Assembly (NCBI GenBank): GCA_035607385.1
Contig: DATNAR010000258.1
Location: 1-44,465, forward strand
Source of the DNA: Casimicrobiaceae bacterium
GTDB lineage: Bacteria > Pseudomonadota > Gammaproteobacteria > Burkholderiales > Casimicrobiaceae
DNA: 44,465 nt
Direction: 5' to 3'
Shown here: one piece after another, positions 3,879-44,465 of the stretch
Numbering within the stretch: position 1 is the stretch's first letter
Layout of the letters: every line of letters starts with the position of its first letter
The notes under the pieces: generated by a model
The model's database searches: none
The model's input: the letters and a program-made list of their open reading frames with translations, nothing else
Told to the model about the DNA's origin: nothing
Position numbers and translations under genes: made by a program

Positions 3879-4075
3879 CGCGCAGAACTTTGGCCGGTCT
3901 TTATTTTCCAATGACCGAGCGGCGCATGCTTGGTTCAATGTCGTAACCGCCGACTACCAGGACTTCGCGGGAACTTGAAGTTTTCCGGACGCGAGCGGTC
4001 GCCTAAACGCTGTGAGTGACTGCCCAGCAAATTTCAAAAACCGCGAGTGCCGATGCGGCCATTGTAGCTTTTACA

Positions 4076-4115
4076 GATCAACGATTCCCTACAGCGGCTA
4101 TCCGAGTTTCCCGGC
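4076..4115 (+). promoter_or_regulatory. Copy A of a tripartite 40-nt motif (GATCAACG-N4-CCTACAG-N13-TTCCCGGC), upstream of the GH94/PPP/cgs array
   Basis: It has the same box spacing as copies at 43983-44022 (+), 43849-43888 (-) and 31346-31385 (-). A TAGAAT hexamer follows at 4139-4144 and the first gene starts at 4223. Confidence 0.45.
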
Positions 4116-4222
4116 AGCTGACGGCTCCCTGAAGTCACTAGAATCATAGCTCCACAGCGGCTCATTGCGATGAGGGGCCCGTTCTCGCACTCGCATCCGC
4201 AGCCGTCTCGAGACCTACAACG

Positions 4223-9168: not shown

Positions 9169-9170
9169 AG

Positions 9171-10556: not shown

Positions 10557-11245
10557 CATCGCGCGACCGGGTCGTGTTCCTCCTGGACTGCGACAACACG
10601 CTACTCGACAACGATCGCGTCCAGGACGATCTCAGGAGCCACCTCGAGCGCGAGTTCGGCGCCGCGAGCAGCGATCGCTACTGGGCGATCTTCGAGGCGC
10701 TGCGCGCCGAGCTCGGCTACGCGGACTACCTCGGCGCCCTGCAGCGCTATCGCCTCGGCGACATGAACGATCCGCGGCTGCTGCTCATGTCCTCCTTTCT
10801 GGTCGACTATCCCTTCGCGGACCGGCTCTATGCCGGCGCGCTCGACGCGATCGCGCATCTCTCCCGTCTGGGCTTGCCGGTGATTCTGTCGGATGGCGAT
10901 GTGGTCTTCCAGCCGCGCAAGATCCAACGCTCCGGGCTGTGGGACGCGGTCGCCGGCCGGGTGCTGATCTACATCCATAAGGAAAAGATGCTGGACGCTG
11001 TCGCACAGGCTTATCCGGCGCGGCATTACGTCGTGGTCGACGACAAGCTGCGCATCCTGGCGGCTATGAAACAGGCCTGGGGCGGCCGGCTGACGACGGT
11101 GTTCCCGCGCCAGGGTCATTACGCCTTCGATGCCAAGAACATCGCCGCCTATCCGCCGGCGGCGCTCACCATCGAGCGTATCGGCGAGCTGGTTCACTAC
11201 GATCTGGCGGCGTTGCTTTCGTTACCGAGTCGCCAATTGCGCTGA
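10553..11245 (+). CDS. HAD-superfamily hydrolase (putative phosphatase)
   Basis: The GTG start overlaps the zwf stop (GTGA, 10553-10556). The N-terminal 'VVFLLDCDNTLLDND' is a DxDxT HAD motif I, and 'VILSDGD' and 'VVVDDK' are late motifs. 230 aa. Confidence 0.6.
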   Translation: MTSRDRVVFLLDCDNTLLDNDRVQDDLRSHLEREFGAASSDRYWAIFEALRAELGYADYLGALQRYRLGDMNDPRLLLMSSFLVDYPFADRLYAGALDAIAHLSRLGLPVILSDGDVVFQPRKIQRSGLWDAVAGRVLIYIHKEKMLDAVAQAYPARHYVVVDDKLRILAAMKQAWGGRLTTVFPRQGHYAFDAKNIAAYPPAALTIERIGELVHYDLAALLSLPSRQLR

Positions 11246-18920: not shown

Positions 18921-21900
18921 TTGCCCTTGGACAGGTCCGAGAAAATCGACGTACGAACCGCGGCGGCAGCGCTGAGCGCCCGGAGTAAGGAGGGTCTGCA
19001 AAAACTCCTTCGCCCGATCGCGCACGTCGGCGCTCGACTGGCCACGCCGGCCGTTCCCGTCGATGGCCCGCCTCTTCGGGCGGAGCTGTTCACCGCCGAG
19101 CAGATGGCGCAGCACGGTCGCGCGCTGGCCGCGTTGCACAAGCGGCGAGACTCGCCGGGACCCGATCGACTCCTCGCGCGCCTTGCCGACAATGACGCCA
19201 TCCTGGCGAAGACGTGCGGGCTGCTGATGGCTACCGTCAAGGCGGACCAGCGCCTTACGCCGGCTGCCGAGTGGCTGCTCGATAATTTCTATCTCATCCA
19301 AGAGCAGATACGCACTGCGCGACGCGACCTGCCCAAGGGCTACAGCGAGAAGCTTCCGCAGCTCTCGACAGGTCCGTCGGCGGGGCTGCCGCGCGTCTAC
19401 GATATTGCGCTGGAAACGGTGTCGCACGGCGACGGTCGCGTCGACTCGGCGAGCCTGCGTGGGTTCATCGCTGCCTACCAGACCGTGGCGCCGCTGATGC
19501 TCGGCGAATTGTGGGCCGTGCCGATCATGCTGCGGCTCGCCTTGATCGAGAACCTGCGCCGGGCGGGGACGCGCCTCTTCGCCGGCAGGACCGATCGCAG
19601 CCTGGCCAACGCGTGGGCCGAACGGATGATCGAAGTGGCGGCCGAGGATCCGAAGAGCGTCATCCTGGAGATCGCCGACATGGCGCGCACGCGGCCTCCG
19701 CAGAGCAGCGCATTCGTCGCCGAGTTCGCCCGCCGCCTTCAGGGGCAAGGTGCGGCGCTGGCGCTGCCGCTCACCTGGCTCGAGCAGCTCCTTTCCGAGT
19801 CCGGACAGACGATCGAGAATCTGGCCCAGGAGGAAAATCGGCAGCAGGCTGCGGATCAGGTGTCGATCAGCAACAGCATCGGCAGCCTTCGCTTTCTCGC
19901 GGCGACCGATTGGCCCGAATTCGTCGAGACCATGAGTCTGGTCGAGCAGACGCTGCGCCGCGATCCCGCCCGGGTTTACGCAAACATGGATTTCACGACC
20001 CGCGACCGATGCCGTCATGCCGTGGAACGGATAGCGCTGCGCAGCCCGCGCTCGGAGCTCGAGGTGGCGCGACTCGCGGTTGAGCTGGCCGAAGCGAGCC
20101 TGCGCCGGCAATCGGCCGACGAACGTTATGGGCACGTGGGTTTCTACCTCATCGATCGCGGTGTCCCGGCTCTCGAAAGCGCAGCAGGAATGCGCGTGCG
20201 GTACCTGCACGCGCTCAGGCGCGGGAACTTCCCGTCGTCCCTGCCGATATACCTCGACGGCATTATGCTGATCACCGCCGTCTTCACGGCCGCGCTGGTG
20301 GTCAACGCCAGTGCGGAGGGCGTCCGCGGCTGGATGCTCGCCGCCACCGCGCTGCTGTCGCTTCTTTGCGCGAGCCAGCTGGGCGTCGCGGTGGCGAACT
20401 GGGTCGCGACCGTGCTGTGCGCGCCGCGCGCGCTGCCGCGAATGGACTACTCGAAGGGCGTCCCGACCGAGGCGCGAACACTCGTCGTGGTGCCTTCCAT
20501 GCTGGCCAGCGCCGTTCATGTCGACGAGCTGCTGCAGGCGCTGGAGGTTCGATTTCTTGCCAACCGGAGCGCCAACGTCCACTTCGGTCTGCTGACCGAT
20601 TTTGTCGACGCCGCCGCAGAATCGGTCCCCCACGACGATATGGTCCTGCAGCTCGTGCAACGCGGCATCGAGACGCTGAATGAAAAATACCCGCAGTCGG
20701 CAGCAGAGGGCGACGCCTTCTACCTGTTCCACCGCCCGCGGCGCTGGAATGGACAGGAAAAGCTGTGGATGGGTCACGAACGCAAGCGCGGGAAGCTCGC
20801 GGACCTCAATGCGCTCCTGCGCGGCCGTGGCGAGGGTCGCTTCCTGCGCATCGTCGGCGCCATCGCCGCACTTCGCGACGTCCGCTATGTGATTACGCTC
20901 GACACCGATACGCTGTTACCCAAAGATGCCGTCCGTGAGCTGGCCGCCGCCATGGCGCATCCGCTCAATCGGCCTCGTTACGACGAGCGGCGTCAATGCA
21001 TCGTCGAAGGTTACGGGATACTGCAGCCACGCATCGCGCCCAGTCTCATCGGCAGCAACCGGTCGCGGTACGCGCGGCTCTGGGGAAGCGAGCCCGGTGT
21101 CGATCCCTATACGCGAGCGATCTCGGATGTCTACCAGGACCTGTTCGGCGAAGGCTCGTTCATCGGCAAGGGCATCTACGATGTCGATGCTTTCGAAGCC
21201 ACGCTCAAGGATCGTTTCCCGGAAAACAGGATATTGAGCCACGATCTGCTGGAGGGATGCTATGCCCGCTCGGGGCTGGTGAGCGACGTCCAGCTCTATG
21301 AGGAGTATCCACCGCGCTACCTGGTCGATGTCAGCCGGCGCCTGCGCTGGATCCGGGGCGACTGGCAGATCGCCGGCTGGCTGCTCCCGCGCGTGCCGGT
21401 ACCCGCGGACCAGCGGGCGCGCAATGTTCTTTCCGCGTTGTCGCGCTGGAAAATCTTCGACAATCTCCGCCGGAGCCTCGTCCCCATCGGCCTGGTTGCG
21501 CTATTGATCTTCGGCTGGACGACCCTGGCTTCGTCTGCGCTGTGGACGGTCGCGGTGCTGGGTATCATCCTGATCCCGCCGCTGCTGGTCTCGATCCTCG
21601 AGATGCTGCGCAAGCGCGACGATGTCTTGTTGAGCCAGCACCTTTTCGCTTCGCTGCGCTCGATGGCGCAGCACTTTGCGCAAGTGGCGTTCAGCCTGTC
21701 ATGCCTGCCGTACGAGGCGTTCATCAGCCTCAACGCCATCGTGCGGGCGGGATGGCGGATGCTGGTCAGCCATCGCCGCTTGCTGGAGTGGACTCCGTCG
21801 GCGCAGGCAAACAACGGCGCCAGCGATCTATGGACCTCGATCCGCGCCATGTGGATTGCGCCTTTCGTCGGATTGGCAACGATCGCGTATCTGTTTGCCT

Positions 21901-24900
21901 TCAACCGCGAGGCGCTGGACGTTGCGTTGCCCATCCTGTGCCTCTGGCTGGCGGCTCCGGGACTGGCCTGGTGGACAAGCCTGCCGTACCTTGACCGGCC
22001 GGCGCAACTATCCTTCGAGCAAGTACGACTGCTGCGCAAGCTGGCCCGCAAGAACTGGCATTATTTCGAGACGTTCGTCGGGCCCGACGACAACTGGCTG
22101 CCACCCGACAACTATCAGGAGCAGCCGGTGGCGATCGTCGCCCATCGCACGTCGCCGACCAACATCGGGCTGGCGTTGCTCGCCAATCTCGCGGCCTACG
22201 ATCTGGGCTATCTAACGATGGGGGAAATGATCGAGCGGACGTCGGCGACCTTTTCCACGATGGCCGACATGGCGCGCCACAACGGTCACTTCTTCAACTG
22301 GTACGACACCCAGGCGCGGCAACGGCTTTCGGGGTACGTGTCGACCGTCGACAGCGGCAACCTCATCGCCCACCTGCTGACGCTGCGCGCCGGCCTGCTG
22401 ACCTTGGCCGACGAGGCGATTCTCAGCCTCCGCTGGTTCGATGGCTTGCGCGATACGTATCGGCTGCTGGTCGACGTCGTCGGCAATAACGCGGTTGTGG
22501 GGCTCGCCGACTTCGAGCGCTGCCTGGGCGCCGCGCGAGCTGCGTCGCCGGCAAGCCTTGATTCAACCTGGTGGCACCTCAACGTCTTGTCGACCTCGGC
22601 GCGCGCCGTTGCCGCGGCAATCGACTCGTCGCCAGCTGCCCCGGACGAGGCGAAGCGTTGGAGCAAGGCTCTGGTCCGGCAGTGCAAGGCCGGCGTGGAC
22701 GAGCTCGCGCTGCTGGCTCCCTGGGTGGCAAGCGGAGATGGCCAGGCACCGGAAGCGGCGCCTCGCGTCGTCGCGGCGTCCGCGCTGCCGACGCTGCGCG
22801 AGCTTGCCCTGCGCGGTAGCGATCCCTCGACGTCCGGCGAGCCAGCCGTCGCCGCCCGCGAGCGGATCGTCGCCATCGACGCTTTGATCGCACAGGCCAC
22901 CGAGTTCTCGACGGTCGATTATGAGTTTCTGTTCGACCGCGGCCGCCGCCTCCTCTCCATCGGCTATGACGTCGTCGAGCAACGGCGGGACGCGAGCTTT
23001 TACGACTTGCTGGCCTCGGAGGCACGGGTGTGCAGCTTCGTCGGCATCGCGCAAGGCAAGCTGCCGCAGGAGAACTGGTTCGCCCTGGGTCGCATGTTGA
23101 CGCGCGCCGGCGGCACGCCGACCTTGCTCTCCTGGAGCGGGTCGATGTTCGAGTACCTGATGCCCTCGCTGATCATGCCTTCGTTTGCCAATACGCTGCT
23201 CGATCAGACTTACAAGGCGGCGGTGCAGCGGCAGATAGAGTACGGCCGCCGTCGCGGCGTAGCGTGGGGAATCTCCGAATGTGCCTACAATACCGTCGAC
23301 GTCGCGCTCAACTACCAGTACCGCGCCTTCGGCGTGCCCGGGCTTGGCCTCAAGAGCGGGCTCGCCGAGGATCTCGTTATCGCGCCGTACGCCTCAGCGC
23401 TCGCGCTCACGGTGAAGCCTGTCGAAGCGTGCGCCAATATCGAGCGGATGATCGACGCCGGCTTTGCCGGGCGGTTCGGGCTCTACGACGCGATCGATTA
23501 CACGCCCTCCCGCGTGCCGCGCGGGCAACCCTACGCCATCGTGCAGGCTTTCATGGCGCACCACCAAGGCATGACGCTGCTGGCACTGCTCCACGTGCTC
23601 GAAGACGGCGCGATGCAGCGCCGATTCGAGTCCGATCCCTTGTTCCAGTCGGCGATGCTCCTGCTACAGGAGCGGGTGCCCAGGGCAACCGGATTTTATG
23701 CCCGGGCCGCGGAGCTTGCCGACTTGCGGCCGAGCACGCCGATCGCCGGCGTGGCGCTTCGCACCATCGGCAATCCCGAGACGCGGTCACCCGAGCTGCA
23801 GTTGCTGTCCAACGGCCGTTTGCACGTGATGGTGACCGCCGCCGGCGGCGGCTACAGCCGGTGGGGAAACTTTCAGATTACGCGCTGGCGCGAGGATCCG
23901 ACCCGCGACTCATGGGGTGCGTTCTGCTACATCCGCGACGTCAGCAGCGGCGCGTTCTGGTCGGCCGCCCATCAACCTACCGGCAAGCGCGCCGACCACT
24001 ACGAAGCGATATTTTCGGAATCGCGCGCGGAGTTTCGCCGCCGCGATGGTGAATTCGAAACCCACACCGAAATCGCGGTTTCGCCCGAGGACGATATCGA
24101 ACTGCGCCGCATCCGCATCAGCAACCGCGCGCGTTCGTCGCGTACGATCGACGTCACCAGCTATGCCGAAGTGGTCCTGGCGCCGCCCGCCGCCGATGCC
24201 CAGGCGCCGGCGTTCGGCAACCTGTTCGTGCAGACGGAGATTTTGCCGCAGAAGAACGCCATCCTGTGCACCCGCCGCCCGCGCTCCGCAAGCGAAGCCG
24301 TTCCCTGGATGTTCCATTTGATGAAAGTGCACGGCGACGATGGCGGTGCCGTCTCGTATGAAACCGACCGCGGCCGCTTCATCGGCCGTTGCAATACCAC
24401 GGCCGCGCCGGCGGCGATGCTGCAAAGCGCGCCGCTATCGGGCAGCGCGGGCTCGGTGCTCGACCCGGTGGCCGCGATCCGCAGGGGCGGCCAGGTGAAG
24501 GCCGGGGCGTCGCTCACGATCGATATCGTGACCGGCATCAGCGAGACGCGCGAAGGGTGTCTGGCCCTGATCGACAAGTACCAGGATCCGAGCCTTGCCG
24601 AACGGGTCTTCGATCTGGCCTGGACGCACAGCAGCGTGACCTTGCGCCAGCTCAACGCCAGCGAAGCCGAAGCGCAGCTTTACAACCGCCTTGCCGCCGC
24701 CGTGCTCTACGCCAATCCCGCGCTGCGTGCGGATCCGTCGGTCATCAAGAAAAACCGCCGCGGTCAATCGGGGCTGTGGGGCTATGCGATCTCGGGAGAC
24801 CTGCCGATCGTTCTGCTGCAGATCGAGGACGCGGCCAATATCGATTTGGTGCGGCAAATGATCCGGGCGCACGCCTACTGGCGGCAAAAGGGATTGGCGG

Positions 24901-27743
24901 TCGACCTCGTGATATGGAACGAAGATCATTCCGGCTACCGGCAGGCGCTGCACGACCAGATTTCCGGCCTGATTGCGGCGGGCGTCGAAGCCCATCTGCT
25001 CGATCGGCCGGGCGGGATATTCGTCCGCCGCGGGGAGCAGATCGCCGACGAGGACCGCTTGCTGTTCCAGACCGTCGCGCGCGCCGTCATCGTCGATCGC
25101 CTGGGCACGCTCGCCGAGCAGGTTGGCCGCCGCCTGCCGCTCGATGCGGCGATCGCGCGTCCCGCACCGCCGGCGGCACGTCGCCGTGAAGCAGCTCCGA
25201 TCGAGGAGCGGCCGCGGCGGGCGCTGGCGTTCGACAACGGGCTCGGCGGCTTTACCGACGACGGGCGGGAATACGTCATCGTCACCGATCGCGACACCCG
25301 GACGCCGACGCCATGGTCCAATGTGCTGGCCAACCCGGATTTCGGCTGTGTCGTCTCGGAGAGCGGCCAAGCCTACACCTGGAGCGAGAACGCCCACGAG
25401 TTTCGCCTTACGCCCTGGCAAAACGACCCGGTCGGCGATGCGGCCGGCGAGGCGTTTTACATCCGGGACGAGGAGAGCCGCTACTACTGGTCGCCGACGC
25501 CGCTCCCGGCCAAGGGCGCGACGCCCTATACCACCCGGCACGGATTCGGCTATAGCGTGTTCGAGCACGCGGAGGAGGGCGTGGCGAGCGAACTGCAGGT
25601 CTTTGTCGCGCTCGACGCCCCGGTCAAGTTCGCCGTGCTGAAGCTGCGTAACGAAAGCGAGCGCAGCCGCCGTCTTTCGCTGACCGGGTACGTCGAATGG
25701 GTGCTTGGCGATCTGCCCGCCAAGACCGGCATGCACGTGATTACCGAGTTCGACGCGCGCAGCGGCGTTCTGTTTGCCCGCAACCCGTATAACAGCGAGT
25801 TTCCGCGACGAACGGCATTTTTCGACGTCGACGCGCCGACGCGCAGCGTGACCGGCGACCGCTGCGAATTTATCGGCCGTTCCGCAGCGCTCGACCACCC
25901 GGCGGCAATGGTCGCAGCGGATCTTTCCGGCCGGACCGGCGCGGCGCTTGACCCCTGCGGAGCGATCCGGGTTGCTTGTCAGCTTGGTCCCGGCGAAGCG
26001 CGGGAATTCGTGTTCCGTCTCGGCGCCGGTCGCGATGCAGACGACGCGGCCGCGATCGCGCTACGCCATCAGGGACGCGGCGCTGCCAGCGATGCGCTGG
26101 AAAAGGTCAGGCAATACTGGCAGCGCACCCTTGGCGCCGTACAGGTGTCGACGCCGGACAGCGGCCTGAATTTCCTCGCCAATGGCTGGCTGGTCTACCA
26201 GGTGCTGGCTTGCCGGCTGTGGGGGCGCAGCGGGTACTACCAGTCGGGCGGCGCCTTCGGGTTTCGCGACCAGCTTCAGGATGTGATGGCCCTGCTGCAC
26301 TGCGAGCCGCGGCTTGCCCGCGAGCACTTGCTGCGTTGCGCCGCGCACCAGTTTATCGAAGGCGACGTGCAGCATTGGTGGCACCCGCCGCTGGGGCGGG
26401 GCATCCGGTCGCTGTGCTCCGACGACTTCCTCTGGCTGCCGTTGGCGGCATGTCGCTATGTCGGCGTCACCGGTGATGCCGGTATCCTCGATGAGCCGGT
26501 CCCTTTCCTCGAGGGTCGCCCGCTCGCCGCCGGCGAAGACTCGTACTACGACCTGCCCGCCCGCTCGGAAACGGCAGCGAGCCTGTACGATCATTGCGTC
26601 CGCGCCTTGCTCCACGGGATGCGCTATGGAGCGCACGGATTGCCGTTGATGGGCTCCGGTGACTGGAACGACGCCATGAATCTGGTCGGCGTCGAAGGCA
26701 AGGGCGAGAGCGTATGGCTCGCATTCTTCTTGCACACGGTACTCGAGGAGTTTGCCGAAATCGCACGCCAGCGCAATGACTCCGCCTTGGTCGAGCGCTG
26801 CGATCAGGAAGCGCAAGGTCTGCGCAGCAGCATTGCCGCGCACGGCTGGGATGGCGCCTGGTATCGCCGCGCGTACTTCGACGACGGTACGCCATTGGGC
26901 TCGGCGACCGATCCGGAATGCCGCATCGATTCGATTGCGCAGAGCTGGGCAGTTCTGGCCGGGATCGACGACGGCGGTCGCCCGCGGCTTGCGATGGAGG
27001 CCGTCGATCGACGGCTCGTTGCGCGCGGCGAAGGTCTGGTGCGATTGCTTGAGCCGCCTTTCGACGCCTCGTCGCTCGAACCCGGATACATCAAGGGATA
27101 CGCGCCCGGGATCCGCGAAAACGGCGGTCAATATACGCACGCCGCGATCTGGGCGGCAATGGCCTTCGCCGCGCTGGGCGACGGCACGCGCGCCGAGGAG
27201 TTGTTGTCCATCATCAACCCGATCAACCATGCCAAGACGGCTGCCGCGGTCGCCGTGTTCAAGACCGAGCCCTTCGTGGTCCCCGCAGACGTCTACGCTT
27301 GCGCGCCGCACACGGGCCGCGGCGGCTGGACCTGGTATACCGGCTCCGCAGGATGGATGTACCGTTTGATCGTCGAATCCCTGATCGGGCTCACGGTTCG
27401 CGCGGACACGCTGTCGATAGCGCCATGCTTACCTCCGACCTGGCCGCGGGTGGAACTGGATTACCGGTACAAGAACACCCTCTACCATATTGAAATCTGC
27501 CGTGCTTCCGGAATGCCCGCCGATCTGCAGGGCCACAGGCTTCGGGTCGTCCTGGACGACATGGACGTGAGCGAGCAGCACATCAAGTTGGTGGACGATC
27601 GCCGGAGCCATCTCGTTCAGGTGACCTTGGTGTCCGCCGAAGACAGTCAGTGGCGCGAGCGAGACGTTGCCGCTCGAGGGGCAGCCGCAAGTGTCGAGCA
27701 CAAGACCCACCGGGAAACGGGCGGTGACGCTGCCCGCGGTTAG
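18921..27743 (+). CDS. cgs: Cyclic beta-1,2-glucan synthase (NdvB/ChvB/Cgs type; GT84 domain, membrane segments, middle glucanase-like domain, C-terminal GH94 domain)
   Basis: 2940 aa. The N-terminal region has 'TPAAEWLLDNFYLIQEQI'. The GT84 block has 'VRYVITLDTDTLLPKD', 'GYGILQPR', 'SHDLLEGCYARSGLVSDV', 'RWIRGDWQI' (about 20400-21400). Hydrophobic helices flank it. The middle domain has 'HRTSPTNIGLALLA', 'VSTVDSGNL', 'WSGSMFEYLMP', 'YQYRAFGVPGLGLK' (about 22000-23600). The GH94 half spans about 23800-27600. The only available start is TTG at 18921 (in-frame TAG 21 nt upstream), so the start codon is uncertain. Confidence 0.9.
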   Translation: MPLDRSEKIDVRTAAAALSARSKEGLQKLLRPIAHVGARLATPAVPVDGPPLRAELFTAEQMAQHGRALAALHKRRDSPGPDRLLARLADNDAILAKTCGLLMATVKADQRLTPAAEWLLDNFYLIQEQIRTARRDLPKGYSEKLPQLSTGPSAGLPRVYDIALETVSHGDGRVDSASLRGFIAAYQTVAPLMLGELWAVPIMLRLALIENLRRAGTRLFAGRTDRSLANAWAERMIEVAAEDPKSVILEIADMARTRPPQSSAFVAEFARRLQGQGAALALPLTWLEQLLSESGQTIENLAQEENRQQAADQVSISNSIGSLRFLAATDWPEFVETMSLVEQTLRRDPARVYANMDFTTRDRCRHAVERIALRSPRSELEVARLAVELAEASLRRQSADERYGHVGFYLIDRGVPALESAAGMRVRYLHALRRGNFPSSLPIYLDGIMLITAVFTAALVVNASAEGVRGWMLAATALLSLLCASQLGVAVANWVATVLCAPRALPRMDYSKGVPTEARTLVVVPSMLASAVHVDELLQALEVRFLANRSANVHFGLLTDFVDAAAESVPHDDMVLQLVQRGIETLNEKYPQSAAEGDAFYLFHRPRRWNGQEKLWMGHERKRGKLADLNALLRGRGEGRFLRIVGAIAALRDVRYVITLDTDTLLPKDAVRELAAAMAHPLNRPRYDERRQCIVEGYGILQPRIAPSLIGSNRSRYARLWGSEPGVDPYTRAISDVYQDLFGEGSFIGKGIYDVDAFEATLKDRFPENRILSHDLLEGCYARSGLVSDVQLYEEYPPRYLVDVSRRLRWIRGDWQIAGWLLPRVPVPADQRARNVLSALSRWKIFDNLRRSLVPIGLVALLIFGWTTLASSALWTVAVLGIILIPPLLVSILEMLRKRDDVLLSQHLFASLRSMAQHFAQVAFSLSCLPYEAFISLNAIVRAGWRMLVSHRRLLEWTPSAQANNGASDLWTSIRAMWIAPFVGLATIAYLFAFNREALDVALPILCLWLAAPGLAWWTSLPYLDRPAQLSFEQVRLLRKLARKNWHYFETFVGPDDNWLPPDNYQEQPVAIVAHRTSPTNIGLALLANLAAYDLGYLTMGEMIERTSATFSTMADMARHNGHFFNWYDTQARQRLSGYVSTVDSGNLIAHLLTLRAGLLTLADEAILSLRWFDGLRDTYRLLVDVVGNNAVVGLADFERCLGAARAASPASLDSTWWHLNVLSTSARAVAAAIDSSPAAPDEAKRWSKALVRQCKAGVDELALLAPWVASGDGQAPEAAPRVVAASALPTLRELALRGSDPSTSGEPAVAARERIVAIDALIAQATEFSTVDYEFLFDRGRRLLSIGYDVVEQRRDASFYDLLASEARVCSFVGIAQGKLPQENWFALGRMLTRAGGTPTLLSWSGSMFEYLMPSLIMPSFANTLLDQTYKAAVQRQIEYGRRRGVAWGISECAYNTVDVALNYQYRAFGVPGLGLKSGLAEDLVIAPYASALALTVKPVEACANIERMIDAGFAGRFGLYDAIDYTPSRVPRGQPYAIVQAFMAHHQGMTLLALLHVLEDGAMQRRFESDPLFQSAMLLLQERVPRATGFYARAAELADLRPSTPIAGVALRTIGNPETRSPELQLLSNGRLHVMVTAAGGGYSRWGNFQITRWREDPTRDSWGAFCYIRDVSSGAFWSAAHQPTGKRADHYEAIFSESRAEFRRRDGEFETHTEIAVSPEDDIELRRIRISNRARSSRTIDVTSYAEVVLAPPAADAQAPAFGNLFVQTEILPQKNAILCTRRPRSASEAVPWMFHLMKVHGDDGGAVSYETDRGRFIGRCNTTAAPAAMLQSAPLSGSAGSVLDPVAAIRRGGQVKAGASLTIDIVTGISETREGCLALIDKYQDPSLAERVFDLAWTHSSVTLRQLNASEAEAQLYNRLAAAVLYANPALRADPSVIKKNRRGQSGLWGYAISGDLPIVLLQIEDAANIDLVRQMIRAHAYWRQKGLAVDLVIWNEDHSGYRQALHDQISGLIAAGVEAHLLDRPGGIFVRRGEQIADEDRLLFQTVARAVIVDRLGTLAEQVGRRLPLDAAIARPAPPAARRREAAPIEERPRRALAFDNGLGGFTDDGREYVIVTDRDTRTPTPWSNVLANPDFGCVVSESGQAYTWSENAHEFRLTPWQNDPVGDAAGEAFYIRDEESRYYWSPTPLPAKGATPYTTRHGFGYSVFEHAEEGVASELQVFVALDAPVKFAVLKLRNESERSRRLSLTGYVEWVLGDLPAKTGMHVITEFDARSGVLFARNPYNSEFPRRTAFFDVDAPTRSVTGDRCEFIGRSAALDHPAAMVAADLSGRTGAALDPCGAIRVACQLGPGEAREFVFRLGAGRDADDAAAIALRHQGRGAASDALEKVRQYWQRTLGAVQVSTPDSGLNFLANGWLVYQVLACRLWGRSGYYQSGGAFGFRDQLQDVMALLHCEPRLAREHLLRCAAHQFIEGDVQHWWHPPLGRGIRSLCSDDFLWLPLAACRYVGVTGDAGILDEPVPFLEGRPLAAGEDSYYDLPARSETAASLYDHCVRALLHGMRYGAHGLPLMGSGDWNDAMNLVGVEGKGESVWLAFFLHTVLEEFAEIARQRNDSALVERCDQEAQGLRSSIAAHGWDGAWYRRAYFDDGTPLGSATDPECRIDSIAQSWAVLAGIDDGGRPRLAMEAVDRRLVARGEGLVRLLEPPFDASSLEPGYIKGYAPGIRENGGQYTHAAIWAAMAFAALGDGTRAEELLSIINPINHAKTAAAVAVFKTEPFVVPADVYACAPHTGRGGWTWYTGSAGWMYRLIVESLIGLTVRADTLSIAPCLPPTWPRVELDYRYKNTLYHIEICRASGMPADLQGHRLRVVLDDMDVSEQHIKLVDDRRSHLVQVTLVSAEDSQWRERDVAARGAAASVEHKTHRETGGDAARG

Positions 27744-31095: not shown

Positions 31096-31345
31096 CGTTC
31101 GCTCCCCGCTCAGCTGTTGATTCGAATCGTATTGATCCTTCAACCTTTGTGACCGACCGGCTCCGACCCAACCGTCCAGTCCGACGACCCGAACGATTGC
31201 GGCGATCGCACATCAGTTCGCGCAGGCCGTAGTCAAAAAAGGATCTTTCCTGGCTTGTTTGGGCGGCAGGAAACAATGGGCTCGGCAAGCGCTCTAAGAG
31301 TGACCGGAAGGAGGCTCATTGTGATATCGCGCCCGGCGCCACATC

Positions 31346-31385
31346 ATCGGGAGACTCTGATATTTTCTGTAGGGCTCTCTTGACT
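31346..31385 (-). promoter_or_regulatory. Copy D of the tripartite motif (read on the minus strand: AGTCAAGA-N4-CCTACAG-N13-CTCCCGAT), about 250 nt upstream of the PAS kinase start
   Basis: All three boxes are identical to copy C (43849-43888), with the same 4-nt and 13-nt spacers. Confidence 0.45.
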
Positions 31386-31593: not shown

Positions 31594-31851
31594 TCATGCC
31601 ACTTCGCGCGTGCCAGCGTCGATGCGAAAGTCGTCCTCGTCACCGGCACCGATGCGATACGACCCGGAGCTAAACAAAACCACGGTTGAAACCGTCTCAT
31701 GGCGCATTGGGAAGCTGGTGAGCGACCGCTCGTTCGTGGACGTTATCAGTAGTGCATCGGTTTCAATCGTCAAGAGCATCTTACGGGAAATGTCGTAGTT
31801 TCCCGACAGTAATTGCACGAGGACAACGACATGCTTGTTATCGGAGTGCAA
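31594..31851 (-). CDS. Hypothetical protein (weak call)
   Basis: An 85-codon ORF (TTG start; internal ATG gives 61 aa) in a visibly more A/T-rich stretch. I recognise no family and see no clear RBS. Confidence 0.2.
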   Translation of the reverse strand: MHSDNKHVVVLVQLLSGNYDISRKMLLTIETDALLITSTNERSLTSFPMRHETVSTVVLFSSGSYRIGAGDEDDFRIDAGTREVA

Positions 31852-31994: not shown

Positions 31995-32216
31995 ATGCCA
32001 ACCAAAAAGACAGCAACGTTCGAGACGATTCCTGTAGGGACGCCGGTGACATGGCACTATCGTAGCGCGATTGGTCACGGCACCGTTAAGGGCGTTCATA
32101 AGAAGGGCACTACGACAGCCAACACCATGTACTCCGTCGCACAGCATGACCATCACCCCGGTGAGCCACCGATTGTGGTGCACTCTGGTGCTGCCTTGAC
32201 TCGCACGGATAAGTAG
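31995..32216 (+). CDS. DUF2945 / Hva1-TUDOR-like small protein
   Basis: 73 aa from the ATG at 31995, preceded by AGGAGAAGAGG. The layout 'VGTPVTWHYRSAIGHGTVKGVHKKG...SVAQHDHHPGEPPIVVHSGAALTR' resembles DUF2945 proteins (short beta-rich domain, 'V.W......G.+..+'). Confidence 0.5.
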   Translation: MPTKKTATFETIPVGTPVTWHYRSAIGHGTVKGVHKKGTTTANTMYSVAQHDHHPGEPPIVVHSGAALTRTDK

Positions 32217-32511: not shown

Positions 32512-32853
32512 GTGCGAGCGTCGCCGTCGTCCGTGTACGCAGTTCGGTATCGGCAGGTGGAGGGCAACGTCGTCTTCTCTTTCCTCAATGCATTTGAACC
32601 GGATACGCAGCGTCTGGCTGAACTGAAGCATCATTATCAGTCGGGCGGCTTAGCCGACAGCACGCTCAAACGTTTGCTCGAGGAGCGTCTCCAAGCGCTC
32701 ATCGAGCCGATCCGCCTGCGACGGCAACGCTTGGCCATGGACCGCGGCGAAGTCGTGGCCATCCTGAGACGTGGGACGGAACGAGCCCGGGACAAGGCCG
32801 CCACAACTTTTGCAGCGGTCAAGCGCGCCCTTGGTCTCGCCTACTTTGTATGA
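32512..32853 (+). pseudogene. 3' fragment of a tryptophanyl-tRNA synthetase gene (C-terminal ~100 aa only)
   Basis: '..NVVFSFLNAFEPDTQRLAELKHHYQSGGLADSTLKRLLEERLQALIEPIRLRRQRLAMDRGEVVAILRRGTERARDKAATTFAAVKRALGL' matches the anticodon-binding C-terminus of TrpRS ('Y..GG.G....K..L.E.+...L.PIR.RR......D...+..IL..G...AR..A..T...V..A+GL'). The Rossmann catalytic part (HIGH/KMSKS) is absent. Confidence 0.55.
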
Positions 32854-32938: not shown

Positions 32939-35230
32939 TTGACCGACGACGACCCCGCGCTTTCCCCCTGGTGGATACGCAGCGTGATGTTTGTGATGCT
33001 GCTTGGCTTCGTGGGGCTTATCACGGTCACCACGCTTGCCTACCGCAACGCACCGCCGATCCCGTCGCAGGTACTCGACGCGCAAGGCGTCGCGCTGTTC
33101 AGCGGCGAGGATATCAGCGACGGACAGACGGTATTTCTCAAATATGGCCTGATGGACAACGGCAGCATCTGGGGCCACGGGGCCTACCTCGGGCCGGACT
33201 ACGCGGCCGACGCGCTGCATCGCATGGGCGAAGACACCGCCGAAGCCATCGCGCAACAACAATATCGGCAGCCTTTGGCCGCTTTGACCCGTTCGCAGCA
33301 GGCGGCAGTGCACGCCGAAACGACCGTGGAGCTCAAGACCAATCGATACGATCCGGCCACCGAAACGTTGCATTTGACCGCGCCGGAAGCGGCGGCCTAT
33401 CGCCAACAGATTAACTACTGGACCGATTACTTCCGGCATCCGTCGCGCAATGGCGGTCTGAAGACTGACCTCATCACCGACCCGACCGAGCTGCACCAAT
33501 TCACCGCCTTCGTCACTTGGGCGGCCTGGGCATCGGTCGCCGCCCGCCCCGGCGAGGATTATTCCTATACCAATAACTTTCCGTACGATCCGAGCGTCGG
33601 TAATCAGCCCACACCGGGCGCTGTGTTGTGGAGTGCGCTTAGCCTGATTGTGCTGCTGGCCGGCACGGCGGCGGTCTTGCTGGCGTTCGGAAAGTTCGAC
33701 TATCTGGGCTGGATTTCTAGGGGCCACCACGTGCACCCGCACTTGCTGCCGGGACAGGCCAGCCGGGGCCAGTACGCGCTGGTGAAGTTCTTTGTGGTCG
33801 TGGCATTGCTGTTTCTGGCGCAGACGCTGGCGGGCGGCGCAGTTGCCCACTACCGCGCCGACCCGAGCAGCTTCTACGGTTTCGAGCTGGAGCGAATTTT
33901 CCCCAGCAACCTGGTGCGCACCTGGCACTTGCAGACGGCGATCTTCTGGATCGCTACGGCCTACGTAGCCGCGGCGCTGTTCCTCGGCCGTTCGCTGCGC
34001 GTCGACGAGCCACGCTGGCTCGCCGGCTGGACTAACGTGCTGTTCGCTGCGTTCGCGTTGGTGATTGGCGGCAGTCTTCTGGGCGAATGGCTCGGCATCT
34101 CGCAAATACTCGGTCGCTCGTGGTTCTGGCTCGGCAATCAGGGTTGGGAGTATCTGGAACTCGGCCGACTGTGGCAGTACCTGCTGGTGATAGGCCTTTT
34201 GGTGTGGTTCGGGCTGCTATGGATGCTGGTGCGGCCGCGCGCGCTTGCTGAAGCGGCTTCGAAGCCAATTGTCAAAATGTTCCTGGTGGCTGCACTGGCG
34301 ATACCGGTTTTCTATATCCCGGCTCTATTTTTCGGTGCCAGGACCAACTATACCGTGGTCGATACTTGGCGTTTCTGGATCATCCACCTGTGGGTAGAAG
34401 GTTTCTTCGAGTTCTTCGCCACGACGGTGGTGGCGCTGACGTTCTATCAACTCGGCCTGACCCGCCGCAATGTTGCGCTGCGGGTAATCTACCTTGATGC
34501 CATCCTGTATTTCCTCGGCGGGCTGATGGGTACCGGTCACCATTGGTATTTCACCGGCCAAACCAACGTCAACATGGCGCTATCGTCGCTATTCTCGGTT
34601 CTCGAGGTGGTCCCGCTGACCTTGTTGACGCTAGACGCATGGGACTTCGTACGAACCACGCGCGGCGACTGCGACATCTGCGGCAAGGCGATTGCGATTC
34701 CACACAAGTGGACGTTCTATTTTTTAATGGCGGTGGGCTTCTGGAACTTCGTCGGTGCCGGCATTTTCGGGTTTTTGATCAACCTGCCGATCGTCAGCTA
34801 TTACGAAGTTGGCACCTTGCTGACGCCCAATCACGGCCACGCTGCGCTGATGGGTGTTTTCGGCATGCTGGCGATTGCGCTCATGGTGTTCGTGCTTCGG
34901 CAGACCAGCGACGATACGCGCTGGGCCGGCACTGAGAAATACGTCAAGCTCGCATTCTGGGGCACTAACGTCGGCCTCGCGATGATGGTGGCGATGAGCT
35001 TGTTCCCCGGTGGCGTGCTGCAGGTTTGGGACGTGATCCAGCATGGATACTGGCACGCCCGCAGCCTTGACTACATCGGGAGTCAAAGGTCGCGTTTGAT
35101 CGAATGGCTGCGCTTGCCCGGCGACCTGGTGTTCATCATCTTCGGCGCCGTGCCGTTGGTAATCGCGTCGATCAAGGGTTACCTCGGGGTGCGCGCCGCG
35201 ATAGCGGACACGGCTCCGCGCGCAGGCTGA
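32939..35230 (+). CDS. norB: Nitric oxide reductase, quinol-dependent large-subunit type (qNor/NorZ)
   Basis: 763 aa with an N-terminal TM helix plus a periplasmic extension ('LAYRNAPPIP', 'GQTVFLKYGLMDNGSIWGHGAYLGPDY'), followed by a 12-helix haem-copper oxidase core ('WRFWIIHLWVEGFFEFF', 'GTGHHWYF', 'PNHGHAALMGVFGM'). The start is uncertain (TTG at 32939; ATG 17 codons later). Confidence 0.88.
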   Translation: MTDDDPALSPWWIRSVMFVMLLGFVGLITVTTLAYRNAPPIPSQVLDAQGVALFSGEDISDGQTVFLKYGLMDNGSIWGHGAYLGPDYAADALHRMGEDTAEAIAQQQYRQPLAALTRSQQAAVHAETTVELKTNRYDPATETLHLTAPEAAAYRQQINYWTDYFRHPSRNGGLKTDLITDPTELHQFTAFVTWAAWASVAARPGEDYSYTNNFPYDPSVGNQPTPGAVLWSALSLIVLLAGTAAVLLAFGKFDYLGWISRGHHVHPHLLPGQASRGQYALVKFFVVVALLFLAQTLAGGAVAHYRADPSSFYGFELERIFPSNLVRTWHLQTAIFWIATAYVAAALFLGRSLRVDEPRWLAGWTNVLFAAFALVIGGSLLGEWLGISQILGRSWFWLGNQGWEYLELGRLWQYLLVIGLLVWFGLLWMLVRPRALAEAASKPIVKMFLVAALAIPVFYIPALFFGARTNYTVVDTWRFWIIHLWVEGFFEFFATTVVALTFYQLGLTRRNVALRVIYLDAILYFLGGLMGTGHHWYFTGQTNVNMALSSLFSVLEVVPLTLLTLDAWDFVRTTRGDCDICGKAIAIPHKWTFYFLMAVGFWNFVGAGIFGFLINLPIVSYYEVGTLLTPNHGHAALMGVFGMLAIALMVFVLRQTSDDTRWAGTEKYVKLAFWGTNVGLAMMVAMSLFPGGVLQVWDVIQHGYWHARSLDYIGSQRSRLIEWLRLPGDLVFIIFGAVPLVIASIKGYLGVRAAIADTAPRAG

Positions 35231-36746: not shown

Positions 36747-37118
36747 CTAGGACGCGGCTTTGCTCGTTCCTTCTTTCAACACCTCGCGCTTGGCAGCATC
36801 AGCGGACGCTGTATCAGGTGCCTTCGCCGCAGCCTCCTGCGCCTCGACATAGAGGTGCTGGTCTGGACCATTTTTAAGGGGCTGCGTTGGCAGCGGTTCG
36901 AGGTGCTCGTTGGCGAACGCTTCCGAGGCATTCGTACCCGGCGCCGCAGCGTTCGCATTGGGCGGTATCGGCCCGCGTTCCGGGGGCGCAGGTGGGGCCA
37001 CGCCGCCCCACGCGACCTTAAACGCTGGATTGGCGCTGGATGCTTGACTCGTGTCGCGTTGGCCGCAGGCACTCAGCAGTGCGATCGCGGCGATGGCAAT
37101 TACGATTGATGATTTCAT
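36747..37118 (-). CDS. Hypothetical lipoprotein
   Basis: 123 aa with 'MKSSIVIAIAAIALLSAC' (signal peptide plus lipobox L-S-A-C). The mature part is Ala/Pro-rich and low in complexity. Confidence 0.6.
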   Translation of the reverse strand: MKSSIVIAIAAIALLSACGQRDTSQASSANPAFKVAWGGVAPPAPPERGPIPPNANAAAPGTNASEAFANEHLEPLPTQPLKNGPDQHLYVEAQEAAAKAPDTASADAAKREVLKEGTSKAAS

Positions 37119-37218
37119 GGTCTATTGGTCACAAAGAGATGGTTTCCAATCACACCCCGAGTATCGGGTGTGCCAAGGCTTGTAAGCACGTTGGAATCTC
37201 GGTCTGATCGACCCCTTT

Positions 37219-37700
37219 TCATTCGAGCGGCGTCAGACTGTGTTGGACCGAAAACCGGACGAGCGCCGCAAAGTTGTCAAGACCGAGCTTCTGCATCATG
37301 CCGTTGCTCGCCTACAGATTGGACAGCCGAGCGGGCCGATTGTTGCTTGCCGGGGTCACGCCGCCGGGGCAACGTCCCGGCTGGTGGTGGCATGTCCGGT
37401 TCTGGCCGTTCAGCGAAATTCGCGAACGCCCGCTTTCCTATCCAAGCGACCAGTTGGACGTGTCCGTTCCTTGAACAGCGCAGTTCGACAGGACCAGACA
37501 ACGGTTTACATGGCTACCCATCGGCAATATAACGTGGGTGTCGGTTCGCAACCAGACGGAAAGCTTGATAGTTCCGGTAGGGAGTACTGGACTGTTCCAC
37601 ATCTGGAGTCGAGTTCTGCGGCCGAGCCAACGCCCGTTTCCCGGATATTGAACTCCGCGATCCGCGTCAACGCCCCTGTTTATTGGGCCTCGTCGGCGCA
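37219..37700 (-). pseudogene. Decayed NarL/FixJ (LuxR-HTH) response-regulator remnant
   Basis: The minus-strand end reads '..ASNGMMQKLGLDNFAALVRFSVQHSLTPLE*' (LuxR-type HTH recognition and last helices), preceded by an in-frame TAG. Upstream frames give receiver-like debris ('..THVILPMGSH..', '..AVQGTDTS..'). Several frame changes are needed and the HTH is too short, so this is not a functional gene. Confidence 0.35.
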
Positions 37701-37739: not shown

Positions 37740-38927
37740 TTACTCGATTGCCGTTCGCATTCTCGTGCTTGCTCCTGCTGCTAAACGAGGCTTCCGTGTG
37801 GAGGACCTGATCGGTCTGATCCATCGCGCGATATCCGGCCAGGTCTCCCTGAGGATGCGCGATCCCATGAACAGCCCGATGTGGCCGCCGGGAACGAGCT
37901 TCTTCTCGATCTTGCGTGCCGGCGTGCCAAGATACTTCTCGGCGTTGAAGACTTGCTCCTTGGTCGCAATGTCGTCGGACTCGCCGGCAAGAAGATAGAC
38001 CGGACAGGCCACGTCCTTGAGGTTCAAGCGCTGCCCGAGGCCGATGAAACGGCCTTCGGCGAGCCGATTCTCCTTGAACAGCTCGACAATAGCCTGGAGA
38101 TACCAACGACCCGGCAGGTCGATCGGGTTTTCATACCAGCTGCGGAATGTCTCTTCCTTTCTCAAATAGGCCGGATCGTCGATGTGCTCGTAGAGGTCAA
38201 TGTGCTGCCTGATGTAGTGCTTTTCCGGGTGCATGCCTTTCCATCCCTGCAGCATGAAGTTGCCGAGCATGAGACCGCCCCCCATTGCAATCAGCTCTTC
38301 GAAGAATGACCGGGGATGGGTGTGCGCCATGCGCCTGACCGGGCCGTTTCCCGCATCGGTGTCGATCGGCGCACCGGCGAGCACCAGGCGCGCGACTTTG
38401 TGCGGGAAGCGCGCGGCGTACATCGCCGACATCCAGCCGCCCTGGCAAAGCCCCACCAGATTGACGCGTCCACCGAGATCATCGACGCACACGTTGATCT
38501 CGGCGAGATATTGATCGATCTCCAGGTCCTTCATGTCCTCGGTTGCCGACTTCCAATCGGTGAGAAAGACACGCTCCAGGCCGTTCGCGAGCAGCGTTTC
38601 GATCAGGCTCTGGCCCTTGTGGTAATCGGCGATAATCGCAGTATGCCCGGCATAGGGCGCATTGACGATTGTCGGCACGCCCGTGGCCGCAGGCGTCGAG
38701 TAATCGCGAAACACCATCGTCCGCAAGTCGAGCGTGATGCGGTTCGCGGTCGCAAGCTTGGGCCTCAATTCGTGATGAATCTTTTCTTCTTCCGCTAGGA
38801 ACGCGAGGTTCTTCCCGACGAGTTCGAGGCCTTGTTCAGCGATCTGCTCGGCTGCCGCCAGCGGCCAGAACAGCGGTACGCCGATGCCGGAAAGCTTGTG
38901 GGGAGCAACATGAGAAGAATGGACCAT
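37740..38927 (-). CDS. PhaC-like (class III PHA synthase-type) alpha/beta hydrolase with Cys nucleophile
   Basis: 395 aa from the ATG at 38927 (ORF open to 39002). It has the lipase-box variant 'VNLVGLCQGGWMSAMYAARFP', plus 'LLAGESDDIAT' and 'LVPGGHIGLFMG'. These line up with the Cys-Asp-His triad blocks of class III PhaC (GICQGG / GGHIG). Confidence 0.6.
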   Translation of the reverse strand: MVHSSHVAPHKLSGIGVPLFWPLAAAEQIAEQGLELVGKNLAFLAEEEKIHHELRPKLATANRITLDLRTMVFRDYSTPAATGVPTIVNAPYAGHTAIIADYHKGQSLIETLLANGLERVFLTDWKSATEDMKDLEIDQYLAEINVCVDDLGGRVNLVGLCQGGWMSAMYAARFPHKVARLVLAGAPIDTDAGNGPVRRMAHTHPRSFFEELIAMGGGLMLGNFMLQGWKGMHPEKHYIRQHIDLYEHIDDPAYLRKEETFRSWYENPIDLPGRWYLQAIVELFKENRLAEGRFIGLGQRLNLKDVACPVYLLAGESDDIATKEQVFNAEKYLGTPARKIEKKLVPGGHIGLFMGSRILRETWPDIARWIRPIRSSTRKPRLAAGASTRMRTAIE

Positions 38928-43595: not shown

Positions 43596-43848
43596 TCGAT
43601 CCTCCATTCCATTAGCGTTTTCAAGCCCGTGCGCAAAGGCTGGACCGCGCGCGCGTTTGCAGATACCGCGGACCTCGGGAAAGAGAATTTCATTCAATCC
43701 CTCGTTCCATGAGAAGCACGGGTACCGCGAAGGGACCGCCTGCATCGCCATCGGTTTTTCCACGTCTTCGCATGTGATCCACGCGACACGTCCACGCGGA
43801 AGTCCGCGCGTTGTTGGGCCAGTGTGGGACGCAGGCGAGCGTGACGGT

Positions 43849-43888
43849 ATCGGGAGAGCTGGACACTTCCTGTAGGAGTGTCTTGACT
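43849..43888 (-). promoter_or_regulatory. Copy C of the tripartite motif (minus-strand reading: AGTCAAGA-N4-CCTACAG-N13-CTCCCGAT), pointing toward the Liv operon
   Basis: Box sequences and spacers are identical to copy D (31346-31385). It lies 254 nt upstream of the binding-protein start and back-to-back with copy B. Confidence 0.45.
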
Positions 43889-43982
43889 ATCGGGTTCGCC
43901 GGAGAGACCGGCGGCAGGGATCCGACCATTGGCAAGTCGCGGCGGAGCGCCGAATGTTCCGCAGCGGCGCCGCGCTCTATCG

Positions 43983-44022
43983 AGTCAAAGCTTCCCTACA
44001 GCGGCTGTCAAGGCCCCCCGGC
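43983..44022 (+). promoter_or_regulatory. Copy B of the tripartite motif (AGTCAAAG-N4-CCTACAG-N13-CCCCCGGC), pointing toward the response-regulator gene
   Basis: It shares the 15-mer TTCCCTACAGCGGCT, then N10, then CCCGGCAGC.GAC with copy A at the same spacing. TACATT lies at 44045-44050 and the gene start is at 44164. Confidence 0.45.
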
Positions 44023-44163
44023 AGCCGACCTTTAGCCGCAAACATACATTGTGTAGGTTGAGACCGGCGTTGCCGGGAGGCGTTACGATGGTTGCCGCCG
44101 TGATGCAAATCGGATGTGCAGGGACGAGGCCGAAGTCGTCGTCGAGTTGAGAGGTGATTTGCC

Positions 44164-44465
44164 ATGATTAGCGTTCTGCTGGCGGACGATCACGCGGTCG
44201 TGCGCGATGGTCTGCGTGCTCTGCTGGAGGCGCAGGCGGATATCGAGGTAGTGGGGGACGCGGCGAACGGGCGGGAAGTCCTGCGCCTGGCGCAGCAACT
44301 GCATCCGGACGTGGTGGTCATGGACATTGCCATGCCGGAGTTGAACGGGGTCGAGGCGACGCAGCAGATGCACGATGCGTATCCATCGACGCAGGTGCTG
44401 ATTCTGTCGATGCACTCGACCACGGAGCATATCTTTCGGGCGCTGCAGGCTGGGGCACGGGGCTA
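44164..44465 (+). CDS. NarL/FixJ-family response regulator, receiver domain (3' end outside the window)
   Basis: The frame is open from the ATG at 44164 to the window end: 'MISVLLADDHAVVRDGLRALLEAQADIEVVGDAANGREVLRLAQQLHPDVVVMDIAMPELNGVEATQQM..TQVLILSMHS..ALQAGARG'. It has the DD acidic pocket, the phospho-acceptor Asp in 'VVMDIAMP', and the typical NarL-class layout. Confidence 0.85.
   Translation, partial: MISVLLADDHAVVRDGLRALLEAQADIEVVGDAANGREVLRLAQQLHPDVVVMDIAMPELNGVEATQQMHDAYPSTQVLILSMHSTTEHIFRALQAGARG

Follow-up and report, generated by a model that had tools for sequence, protein, structure and literature searches.

A repeated 42-bp element upstream of predicted sigma-70 promoters in Casimicrobiaceae and its candidate NarL-type activator

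A 44,465-nucleotide stretch of DNA from a Casimicrobiaceae bacterium (contig DATNAR010000258.1; hereafter the window) carries six copies (A–F) of a polar 42-bp element, all of which lie between genes and each of which faces a gene start. With an estimated probability of 0.85–0.9, the element is a site for a transcription factor upstream of sigma-70 promoters. For the factor, the preferred candidate, at odds a little better than even, is the NarL/FixJ-type response regulator whose gene lies next to copy B, and which would act as an activator. The mechanism proposed here would place two dimers of a single transcription factor on the two tandem units of the element, with the promoter-proximal dimer abutting the −35 region and recruiting RNA polymerase. 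The host belongs to Casimicrobiaceae (Burkholderiales), an unstudied and abundant soil lineage, and exact-protein look-ups find the window proteins in many soil and rhizosphere metagenomes.

Architecture of the element and its promoter

The original prediction described four copies (A–D) of a three-box motif. Re-reading of the window reproduced their sequences and strands exactly, together with the 4- and 13-nt spacers in all four copies, the 15 invariant positions, the identity of C and D at 23 of 23 box positions and the divergent arrangement of B and C with 94 nt in between. The gene calls place A–D in intergenic regions facing transcription units. The distances to the start codons are non-uniform, as had been noted: 108 nt for A (to 4223), 142 nt for B (ATG at 44164), 254 nt for C (43595) and 251 nt for D (31095). 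Copies E and F were absent from that description. Copy E is a fifth strong copy that diverges from D, and F is weak and degenerate.

The pattern TCAA-N6-CCTACAG-N15-CCCG has four exact matches in the window. When up to three mismatches are allowed, it yields six window sites against 0.74 expected, a count that none of 100 shuffles reaches. Copy E is one of the two sites gained in this way, and F emerged with a weight matrix. On this matrix, derived from 38 independent sites, the five strong window copies score 37.7–50.9 bits, and the best score in 20 window shuffles is 3.1 bits. The repeated motif is real and far beyond chance in the window.

The 38 sites come from the window and from related loci and contigs, which are designated by L numbers. 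A strict pattern has only 6 matches in 185,579 representative genomes, a collection that evidently does not include the window's own genome; four of the six lie in two proteobacterial metagenome-assembled genomes (MAGs) and clearly belong to the same motif. A slightly looser pattern retrieved 36 stretches from a metagenome collection, and the loci around regulator orthologues gave further copies that were not selected by a DNA pattern. In total, 45 distinct instances were collected from related Burkholderiales contigs, 38 of them non-redundant. Where gene calls exist, the sites are all intergenic with a single exception, which overlaps a doubtful open reading frame (ORF) call.

An information profile of the 38 non-redundant sites, numbered so that TCAA occupies positions 3–6, shows that the three boxes, which span 40 nt, belong to a 42-bp element. 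A TRTC within the 13-nt "spacer" is conserved, and conservation continues for 2 nt beyond the third box. The consensus reads RTCAAGrnTTCCCTACAG (positions 2–19), nAnnT and GTCAARnTYTCCCGAYAG (positions 25–42), and thus comprises two tandem 18-bp units, GTCAAGrnTTCCC(T/G)A(C/T)AG, with a period of 23 bp. The second half repeats the first column by column: the self-match of the matrix is 5.81 at a direct shift of 23 and at most 1.3 at other shifts. Self-comparison of the matrix also locates dyad centers at positions 9.5, 21 and 32.5, as expected of a tandem pair of imperfectly palindromic units. Each unit forms an imperfect 16-bp dyad of the 6-N4-6 type, GTCAAG-N4-CCC(T/G)AC, with GTC and GAC/TAC arms. 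Only about four of the six arm positions are symmetric, and the asymmetry between AAG on the left and CCC on the right is itself conserved. Free columns (9, 20, 22–23 and 31) are interspersed among the conserved ones, and both flanks are devoid of information. Such a column pattern marks a protein-binding site and not a repeated DNA element.

A single conserved block is found downstream of the 42-mer, at positions 63–68, which lay outside every search pattern and matrix used to find the sites. The block reads yAnAnT, starts 22 nt after CCCGAT and is defined by A at position 64 (30 of 38 sites; binomial p = 5e-12), A at position 66 (25 of 38; p = 1e-7) and T at position 68 (29 of 38; p = 5e-11). 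Beyond this hexamer, no column from 43 to 112 exceeds 0.5 bit. The yAnAnT block is shaped like a sigma-70 −10 element and matches the −10 sequence TAnAAT mapped by differential RNA sequencing in Burkholderia cenocepacia, another member of Burkholderiales (PMC4603805). No conserved −35 hexamer is found in the 38 sites, in which columns 40–45, where such a hexamer would be expected, are unconserved beyond the T of CCCGAT.

With the hexamer placed at −12 to −7, the two units span approximately −73 to −56 and −50 to −33, with centers at approximately −65.5 and −42.5. Placed in this way, the site touches or overlies the −35 region of a sigma-70 promoter with no good −35 hexamer, as expected for an activator site, and its placement at approximately −65 and −42, as reckoned from the predicted −10 element, is the layout of an activator-dependent promoter. 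Leaders are short in two MAGs, and there the start codon lies 59–82 nt after the element, consistent with a transcription start approximately 33 nt past the element. The multi-contact regulator site that the original prediction had offered as one of two readings is supported by the intergenic, oriented placement and by the repeat structure. Because the site is polar, divergent operons would each carry a copy of their own, which accounts for the back-to-back pairs C/B and D/E.

Candidate regulator and alternative readings

The response-regulator gene downstream of copy B encodes a receiver domain and a GerE-type helix-turn-helix (HTH) domain, and its product would activate its own gene. The closest solved relatives are VraR, DevR and NarL. 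No named orthologue was assigned by NCBIfam, in which the best models (MctR, GacA/UvrY, NarL and ErdR) all score under their cut-offs, and close homologues are labelled Casimicrobiaceae or Burkholderiales. No other transcription-factor gene was found in approximately 55 kb around the window. In the window and in L042, L052, L057, L059 and L060, the motif precedes the regulator gene itself, and in L019 and L061 it precedes a kinase-regulator operon, which amounts to about eight of the ten lineages examined; in L042, it is also found upstream of a HisKA_3 kinase gene. The sites at the regulator gene share a peculiarity, in that the proximal unit ends in CCCGGCAG both in copy B and in the orthologous sites of L042, L052, L057, L059 and L060.

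In relatives, the regulator is translationally coupled to multi-PAS HisKA_3 kinases. Several kinase-regulator pairs occur in Casimicrobiaceae genomes (L020/L021 at 3898–5612 and 8901–10642; L019, L022 and L061), and their regulators share one recognition helix, while the kinases differ in PAS number or lack PAS domains. The recognition helix, LFLSPKTVDTYRSR, is invariant in the orthologues and in one paralogue; accordingly, several kinase-regulator pairs may converge on one site type, and the comparison suggests that a single DNA-binding specificity is fed by several sensors. Comparing motif and regulator variants lineage by lineage was uninformative, because the helix does not vary and TCGAG variants are present in the window's own lineage as well (L013:653-).

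From the copies at the kinase gene (D) and at the regulator gene (B), an autoregulated two-component regulon had been proposed. The autoregulatory part of this proposal is upheld by the recurrence of the motif at the regulator gene or operon. The unit D kinase carries a HisKA domain rather than the HisKA_3 domain of the regulator-paired kinases in relatives; this kinase gene is probably a target rather than the cognate sensor.

Downstream of the weak copy F, a short ORF, MMQKLGLDNFAALVRFSVQHSLTPLE*, is very similar to the C terminus of the regulator (...LMHKLDIGDLPSLVKFAIQHGVTQLD). It seems to be what is left of a paralogous regulator gene, decayed like the motif copy in front of it. The ORF was missed by tblastn because it is very short.

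Several observations weigh against this model. The loci were partly chosen via the regulator itself, which inflates the association between motif and regulator, and no motif precedes two orthologous or paralogous kinase-regulator operons, that of L022 and the second pair of L020. Two good copies face the 3′ ends of genes. One, L022:10691-10732 (−), sits between convergent regulator and PDH-E1 genes, and the other, L020:15719-15760 (+), faces the end of a VIT1 gene; both could serve antisense or unannotated small transcripts or be leftovers of rearrangement. The weak dyad of each unit, combined with the strongly conserved AAG/CCC difference, is not what a homodimer site usually shows, and a two-headed monomer would fit it as well. 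Moreover, 23 bp does not correspond to an integral number of helical turns, and the predicted 5′ leaders of C and D are long, at approximately 215 nt.

In a possible, though distinctly less probable, reading, the promoter architecture is the same but a different factor, encoded elsewhere, binds the site, and the gene of the NarL-type regulator simply belongs to its targets. Such a factor could be of the AraC/XylS type, in which a monomer contacts two adjacent grooves and two direct repeats are bound, the proximal one overlapping the −35 region, or of the OmpR/PhoB type on four half-sites approximately 11.5 bp apart. The direct repeat of an asymmetric 18-bp unit is the dominant symmetry of the site, and the left and right halves of the unit differ while both are highly conserved. 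The positions of the units, approximately −73 to −56 and −50 to −33, resemble those of araI1/I2 or XylS sites, and the HisKA domain of the unit D kinase is the usual partner of OmpR- or NtrC-type regulators. For an AraC/XylS site the comparison is mixed: the 18-bp direct repeat is clear and the proximal unit ends at approximately −33, but the period is 23 bp instead of approximately 21 bp, or 21–22 bp. Furthermore, no HTH_18/AraC domain occurs in any gene of the window or of the annotated loci L001–L022 and L059–L061, no AraC-, OmpR- or other transcription-factor gene was found in the annotated loci with the motif, the motif repeatedly precedes this one regulator family, and dyad centers are located inside each unit.

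The opposite sign of regulation, with the motif as an operator at which a repressor or nucleoid-organizing protein silences promoters, is improbable. Sequence cannot by itself give the sign, and two copies are found in convergent or 3′ intergenic regions; but the site lies wholly upstream of −33 and leaves the −10 element and the start uncovered, and the lack of a conserved −35 hexamer is typical of promoters that need an activator.

The second reading of the original prediction, a non-sigma-70 promoter with CCTACA as −35, CCCGAT/CCCGGC as −10 and a 16-nt spacer, as for an alternative sigma factor of the extracytoplasmic function (ECF) type, is very unlikely and was abandoned. It accounts for two conserved blocks 16 nt apart and for the orientation of the motif toward genes. 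However, CCTACAG and CCCGAyAG occupy equivalent positions of one duplicated unit (shift of 23), such a promoter would leave two more conserved blocks, GTCAAG and TGTCAAR, without a function, and a separate sigma-70-type −10 (yAnAnT) is conserved 22 nt downstream of CCCGAT. The blocks also lack the AAC and CGT signatures common in ECF promoters, and no sigma or anti-sigma gene is found nearby.

Several copies in one window, often as inverted pairs, would be explained by a REP/MITE-like dispersed repeat or by a structured RNA, but this reading is scarcely credible: only discrete columns are conserved while interspersed columns and flanks are free, the copies are intergenic at a fixed distance from the −10 element and nearly all oriented to genes, matches in the large collections are as few as given above, the promoter model puts the motif upstream of the transcript, and an Rfam scan of the window detected a tRNA but no RNA family over the motif.

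Three established site types were compared with the motif and rejected. An FNR/Anr-type box (TTGAT-N4-ATCAA or TGA-N6-TCA, near −41.5) would require a TTGAT partner to RTCAA, which copies A–C do not have. For sigma-54, L009 and L011 have TGGCAT near the −10 position, but the spacing of GG and GC deviates by 1–2 nt and the sequence is absent in L007 and in the window copies. The spacings fit neither a sigma-32 promoter nor an ECF reading.

Target genes and gene map

Across the loci, the motif precedes genes of a few functional classes; ORF calling downstream of the sites is noisy in G+C-rich DNA, and the analysis was confined to ORFs that already had a gene call or showed the clear features of a family. 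The regulatory targets are the NarL-type regulator gene, the HisKA_3 kinase gene and the PAS-HisKA_3 kinase-regulator operon. The transport targets include Liv-type ABC operons (five lineages, including Burkholderiales bacterium 70-64), satP alone or with acs, and an NMT1-type binding protein. The arrangement at copy C, in which the motif precedes the Liv operon, recurs in L019, L042, L052, L058 and L011. Oxidases and nitric oxide (NO) metabolism are represented by the aa3 oxidase (COX2/COX1/CtaG), a cupredoxin with a cbb3-type oxidase cluster, the qNOR unit and the kinase-HiPIP-NnrS unit. Dehydrogenase targets are nuoA-nuoB, a Tat-exported FdnG-type molybdopterin oxidoreductase, pyrroloquinoline quinone (PQQ) dehydrogenases and a gluconate-2-dehydrogenase-like operon, and further redox genes encode an IorA-like 2Fe-2S subunit and a CMD/AhpD-like protein. 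Carbon-reserve and sugar genes comprise a transaldolase/GH15/PDH-E1 cluster and the GH94/pentose-phosphate array.

The regulon is broad, covering energy, redox and carbon-reserve functions, and is not glucan-specific. The original prediction of a two-component regulon that controls the glucan/pentose-phosphate array holds in that the regulon includes the regulator's own gene, but it was too narrow, as oxidases, qNOR, nuo, dehydrogenases, acetate uptake and Liv transporters are included as well. Under the proposed mechanism, the regulator would thus govern the aa3 oxidase, qNOR, NnrS/HiPIP, nuo, the PQQ-, FDH-like and gluconate dehydrogenases, satP-acs, Liv transporters and the genes for glucan, pentose-phosphate and polyhydroxybutyrate (PHB) mobilization. 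A bolder proposal is advanced only tentatively and is on balance doubtful: near-identical NarL-type regulators, fed by different multi-PAS kinases, might constitute a Casimicrobiaceae master switch that acts through a polar site of two asymmetric 16-bp pseudo-dyads 23 bp apart, in a binding mode unlike that of characterized NarL/LuxR proteins, and controls most of the respiratory chain (nuo, aa3, cbb3, qNOR, cupredoxins and several periplasmic dehydrogenases) together with glucan and PHB mobilization.

The motif is an ordinary kind of regulatory site, a tandem-site activator-dependent sigma-70 promoter, in an unstudied group. It leaves the general view of bacterial transcription unchanged and adds a new instance of activator-dependent promoters. 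It also supplies a regulon map and a promoter model for an abundant uncultured soil family of Burkholderiales, in which one two-component output would tie together respiration, NO detoxification, acetate and amino-acid uptake and the use of carbon reserves. As the site is long, rich in information and polar, co-regulated genes can be predicted directly from metagenome contigs.

The gene map starts with a tRNA-Met gene, the sole Rfam or ARAGORN match in the window, and a transketolase gene (−), which are followed by copy A. The array behind A (+) encodes a GH94 glucan phosphorylase-like protein, 6PGD, G6PD, HAD, transaldolase, PGI, PGM, a glucoamylase-like protein and a 2940-residue cyclic-glucan-synthase-like protein. 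The two large GH94 proteins bracket the oxidative pentose-phosphate and sugar-phosphate gene set in one apparent operon, and the larger is of the cyclic beta-1,2-glucan synthase type. Between the array and F lie the NnrS, HiPIP and PAS-HisKA kinase genes (−), copies D and E, the genes for a 73-residue ORF, a 106-residue ORF, qNOR, a PEP-mutase-like protein and CMD (+), and a 123-residue gene (−). The 106-residue ORF immediately upstream of qNOR has no Pfam match; it resembles by eye the C-terminal part of tryptophanyl-tRNA synthetase and may be a gene fragment. At the right end, a PHB-depolymerase/DUF3141-like gene and the Liv-type ABC operon (−) are followed by C, B and the regulator gene (+). 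The first of these genes had been called PhaC-like; its matches to the PHB_depo_C, DUF3141 and alpha/beta-hydrolase models make an intracellular PHB depolymerase-type enzyme more likely than a synthase.

Past the right end of the window, strains of the same species differ downstream of the regulator gene (L013 versus L015/L016/L018). The variants are FtsH, aconitase and an aa3 oxidase cluster on the one hand and a 143-residue protein, an HTHP haem protein, a cupredoxin and a gluconate-2-dehydrogenase-like operon on the other, and both carry motif copies of their own.

Table 1. Motif copies, predicted −10 hexamers and genes in the window (coordinates of minus-strand hexamers run 5′ to 3′; downstream genes of copy A by Pfam)
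Feature	Coordinates	Strand	Sequence or score	Description
tRNA-Met (CAT) gene	1063-1139	+		
Copy A, boxes	4076-4115	+	GATCAACG-attc-CCTACAG-N13-TTCCCGGC	
Copy A, full element	4076-4117	+	44.3 bits	Tandem 18-bp units at 4077-4094 and 4100-4117; upstream of GH94/pentose-phosphate/cyclic-glucan-synthase array
Predicted −10, promoter A	4139-4144	+	TAGAAT	23 nt after CCCGGC; 1 nt more than elsewhere
GH94 protein	4223-8137	+		1304 aa
GH94/glycosyltransferase	18921-27743	+		2940 aa
Copy D, boxes	31346-31385	−	AGTCAAGA-gagc-CCTACAG-N13-CTCCCGAT	
Copy D, full element	31344-31385	−	44.3 bits	Upstream of PAS-HisKA kinase/HiPIP/NnrS unit
Predicted −10, promoter D	31323-31318	−	CACAAT	
Copy E, full element	31768-31809	+	CGTCAAGAgcatCTTACGGgaaaTGTCGTAGtTTCCCGACAG; 37.7 bits	Upstream of qNOR unit
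Predicted −10, promoter E	31830-31835	+	CATGCT	
Hva1_TUDOR-like ORF	31995-32216	+		73 aa; downstream of copy E
106-aa ORF	32533-32853	+		
qNOR	32987-35230	+		Downstream of copy E
123-aa gene	36747-37118	−		
Short ORF	37217-37297	−		Resembles regulator C-terminal end
Hexamer after copy F	37531-37526	−	TATATT	
Copy F, full element	37552-37593	−	23.2 bits	Upstream of LuxR-type HTH C-terminus relic and 123-aa gene
PHB-depolymerase/DUF3141-like gene	37740-38927	−		
Predicted −10, promoter C	43826-43821	−	CACACT	
Copy C, boxes	43849-43888	−	AGTCAAGA-cact-CCTACAG-N13-CTCCCGAT	
Copy C, full element	43847-43888	−	50.9 bits	Upstream of Liv-type ABC operon and PHB-depolymerase-like gene
Copy B, boxes	43983-44022	+	AGTCAAAG-cttc-CCTACAG-N13-CCCCCGGC	
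Copy B, full element	43983-44024	+	48.2 bits	Upstream of NarL/FixJ-type response-regulator gene
Predicted −10, promoter B	44045-44050	+	TACATT	
NarL/FixJ-type response-regulator gene, 5′ part	44164-44465	+		213 aa in full; REC and GerE HTH; candidate activator

Comparison with known systems

The inferred layout was compared with several characterized activator sites. At the lux box and other class II sites, a GerE-type HTH dimer binds at approximately −42.5 in place of the −35 hexamer. The lux box consists of one symmetric site of 20 bp, whereas the element here has two asymmetric 16–18-bp units; the lux box of Vibrio fischeri contains CTGTAGG, which is CCTACAG in reverse complement. AraC/XylS sites (araI1-I2 and XylS at Pm) comprise two direct repeats of a 17–18-bp bipartite unit at approximately −73 to −33, with the proximal repeat touching the −35 region and a period of 21 bp. 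The element here differs in its period, and no AraC-family gene is seen near any copy. BvgA of Bordetella, a NarL-family regulator of Burkholderiales, binds as several dimers approximately 22 bp apart down to the −35 region. Its heptads form inverted pairs, and its arrays start much further upstream, at approximately −90. The BvgA heptad TTTCCTA is similar to TTCCCTA in each unit here, as a resemblance only.

At the level of the regulon, the system resembles the DosR/DevR dormancy regulon of mycobacteria and the lxa low-oxygen locus of Burkholderia cenocepacia, in which one motif precedes many clustered operons for respiration, NO and hypoxia, storage-polymer use and an FtsH-type protease. DosR is likewise an autoregulated NarL-type regulator, but the DosR box is a 20-bp palindrome without a match to the motif here. 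The lxa locus has an FNR-like motif, TGA-N6-TCA (PMC3721108), which does not match the motif here either.

CrbR/ErdR, a LuxR/NarL-family regulator of Pseudomonas and Vibrio, activates RpoD promoters through the ACTU motif, with targets that include acs and acetate permease (PMC5715377). Its experimentally defined site, TWCGAC-N4-GTCGWA, is a 16-bp imperfect dyad at −52 to −36 (PMC5715377). The 6-N4-6 geometry beside the −35 region is common to both systems, and satP-acs carries the motif here in L061 and L027. The half-sites differ, with GTCAAG-N4-CCCKAC here, and two tandem units are present instead of one site. The regulator here matches the ErdR model weakly (55 bits versus a cut-off of 390). 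Moreover, the kinases are of the PAS-HisKA_3 type here and of the SLC5-STAC type for CrbR, and the regulon described here is much broader.

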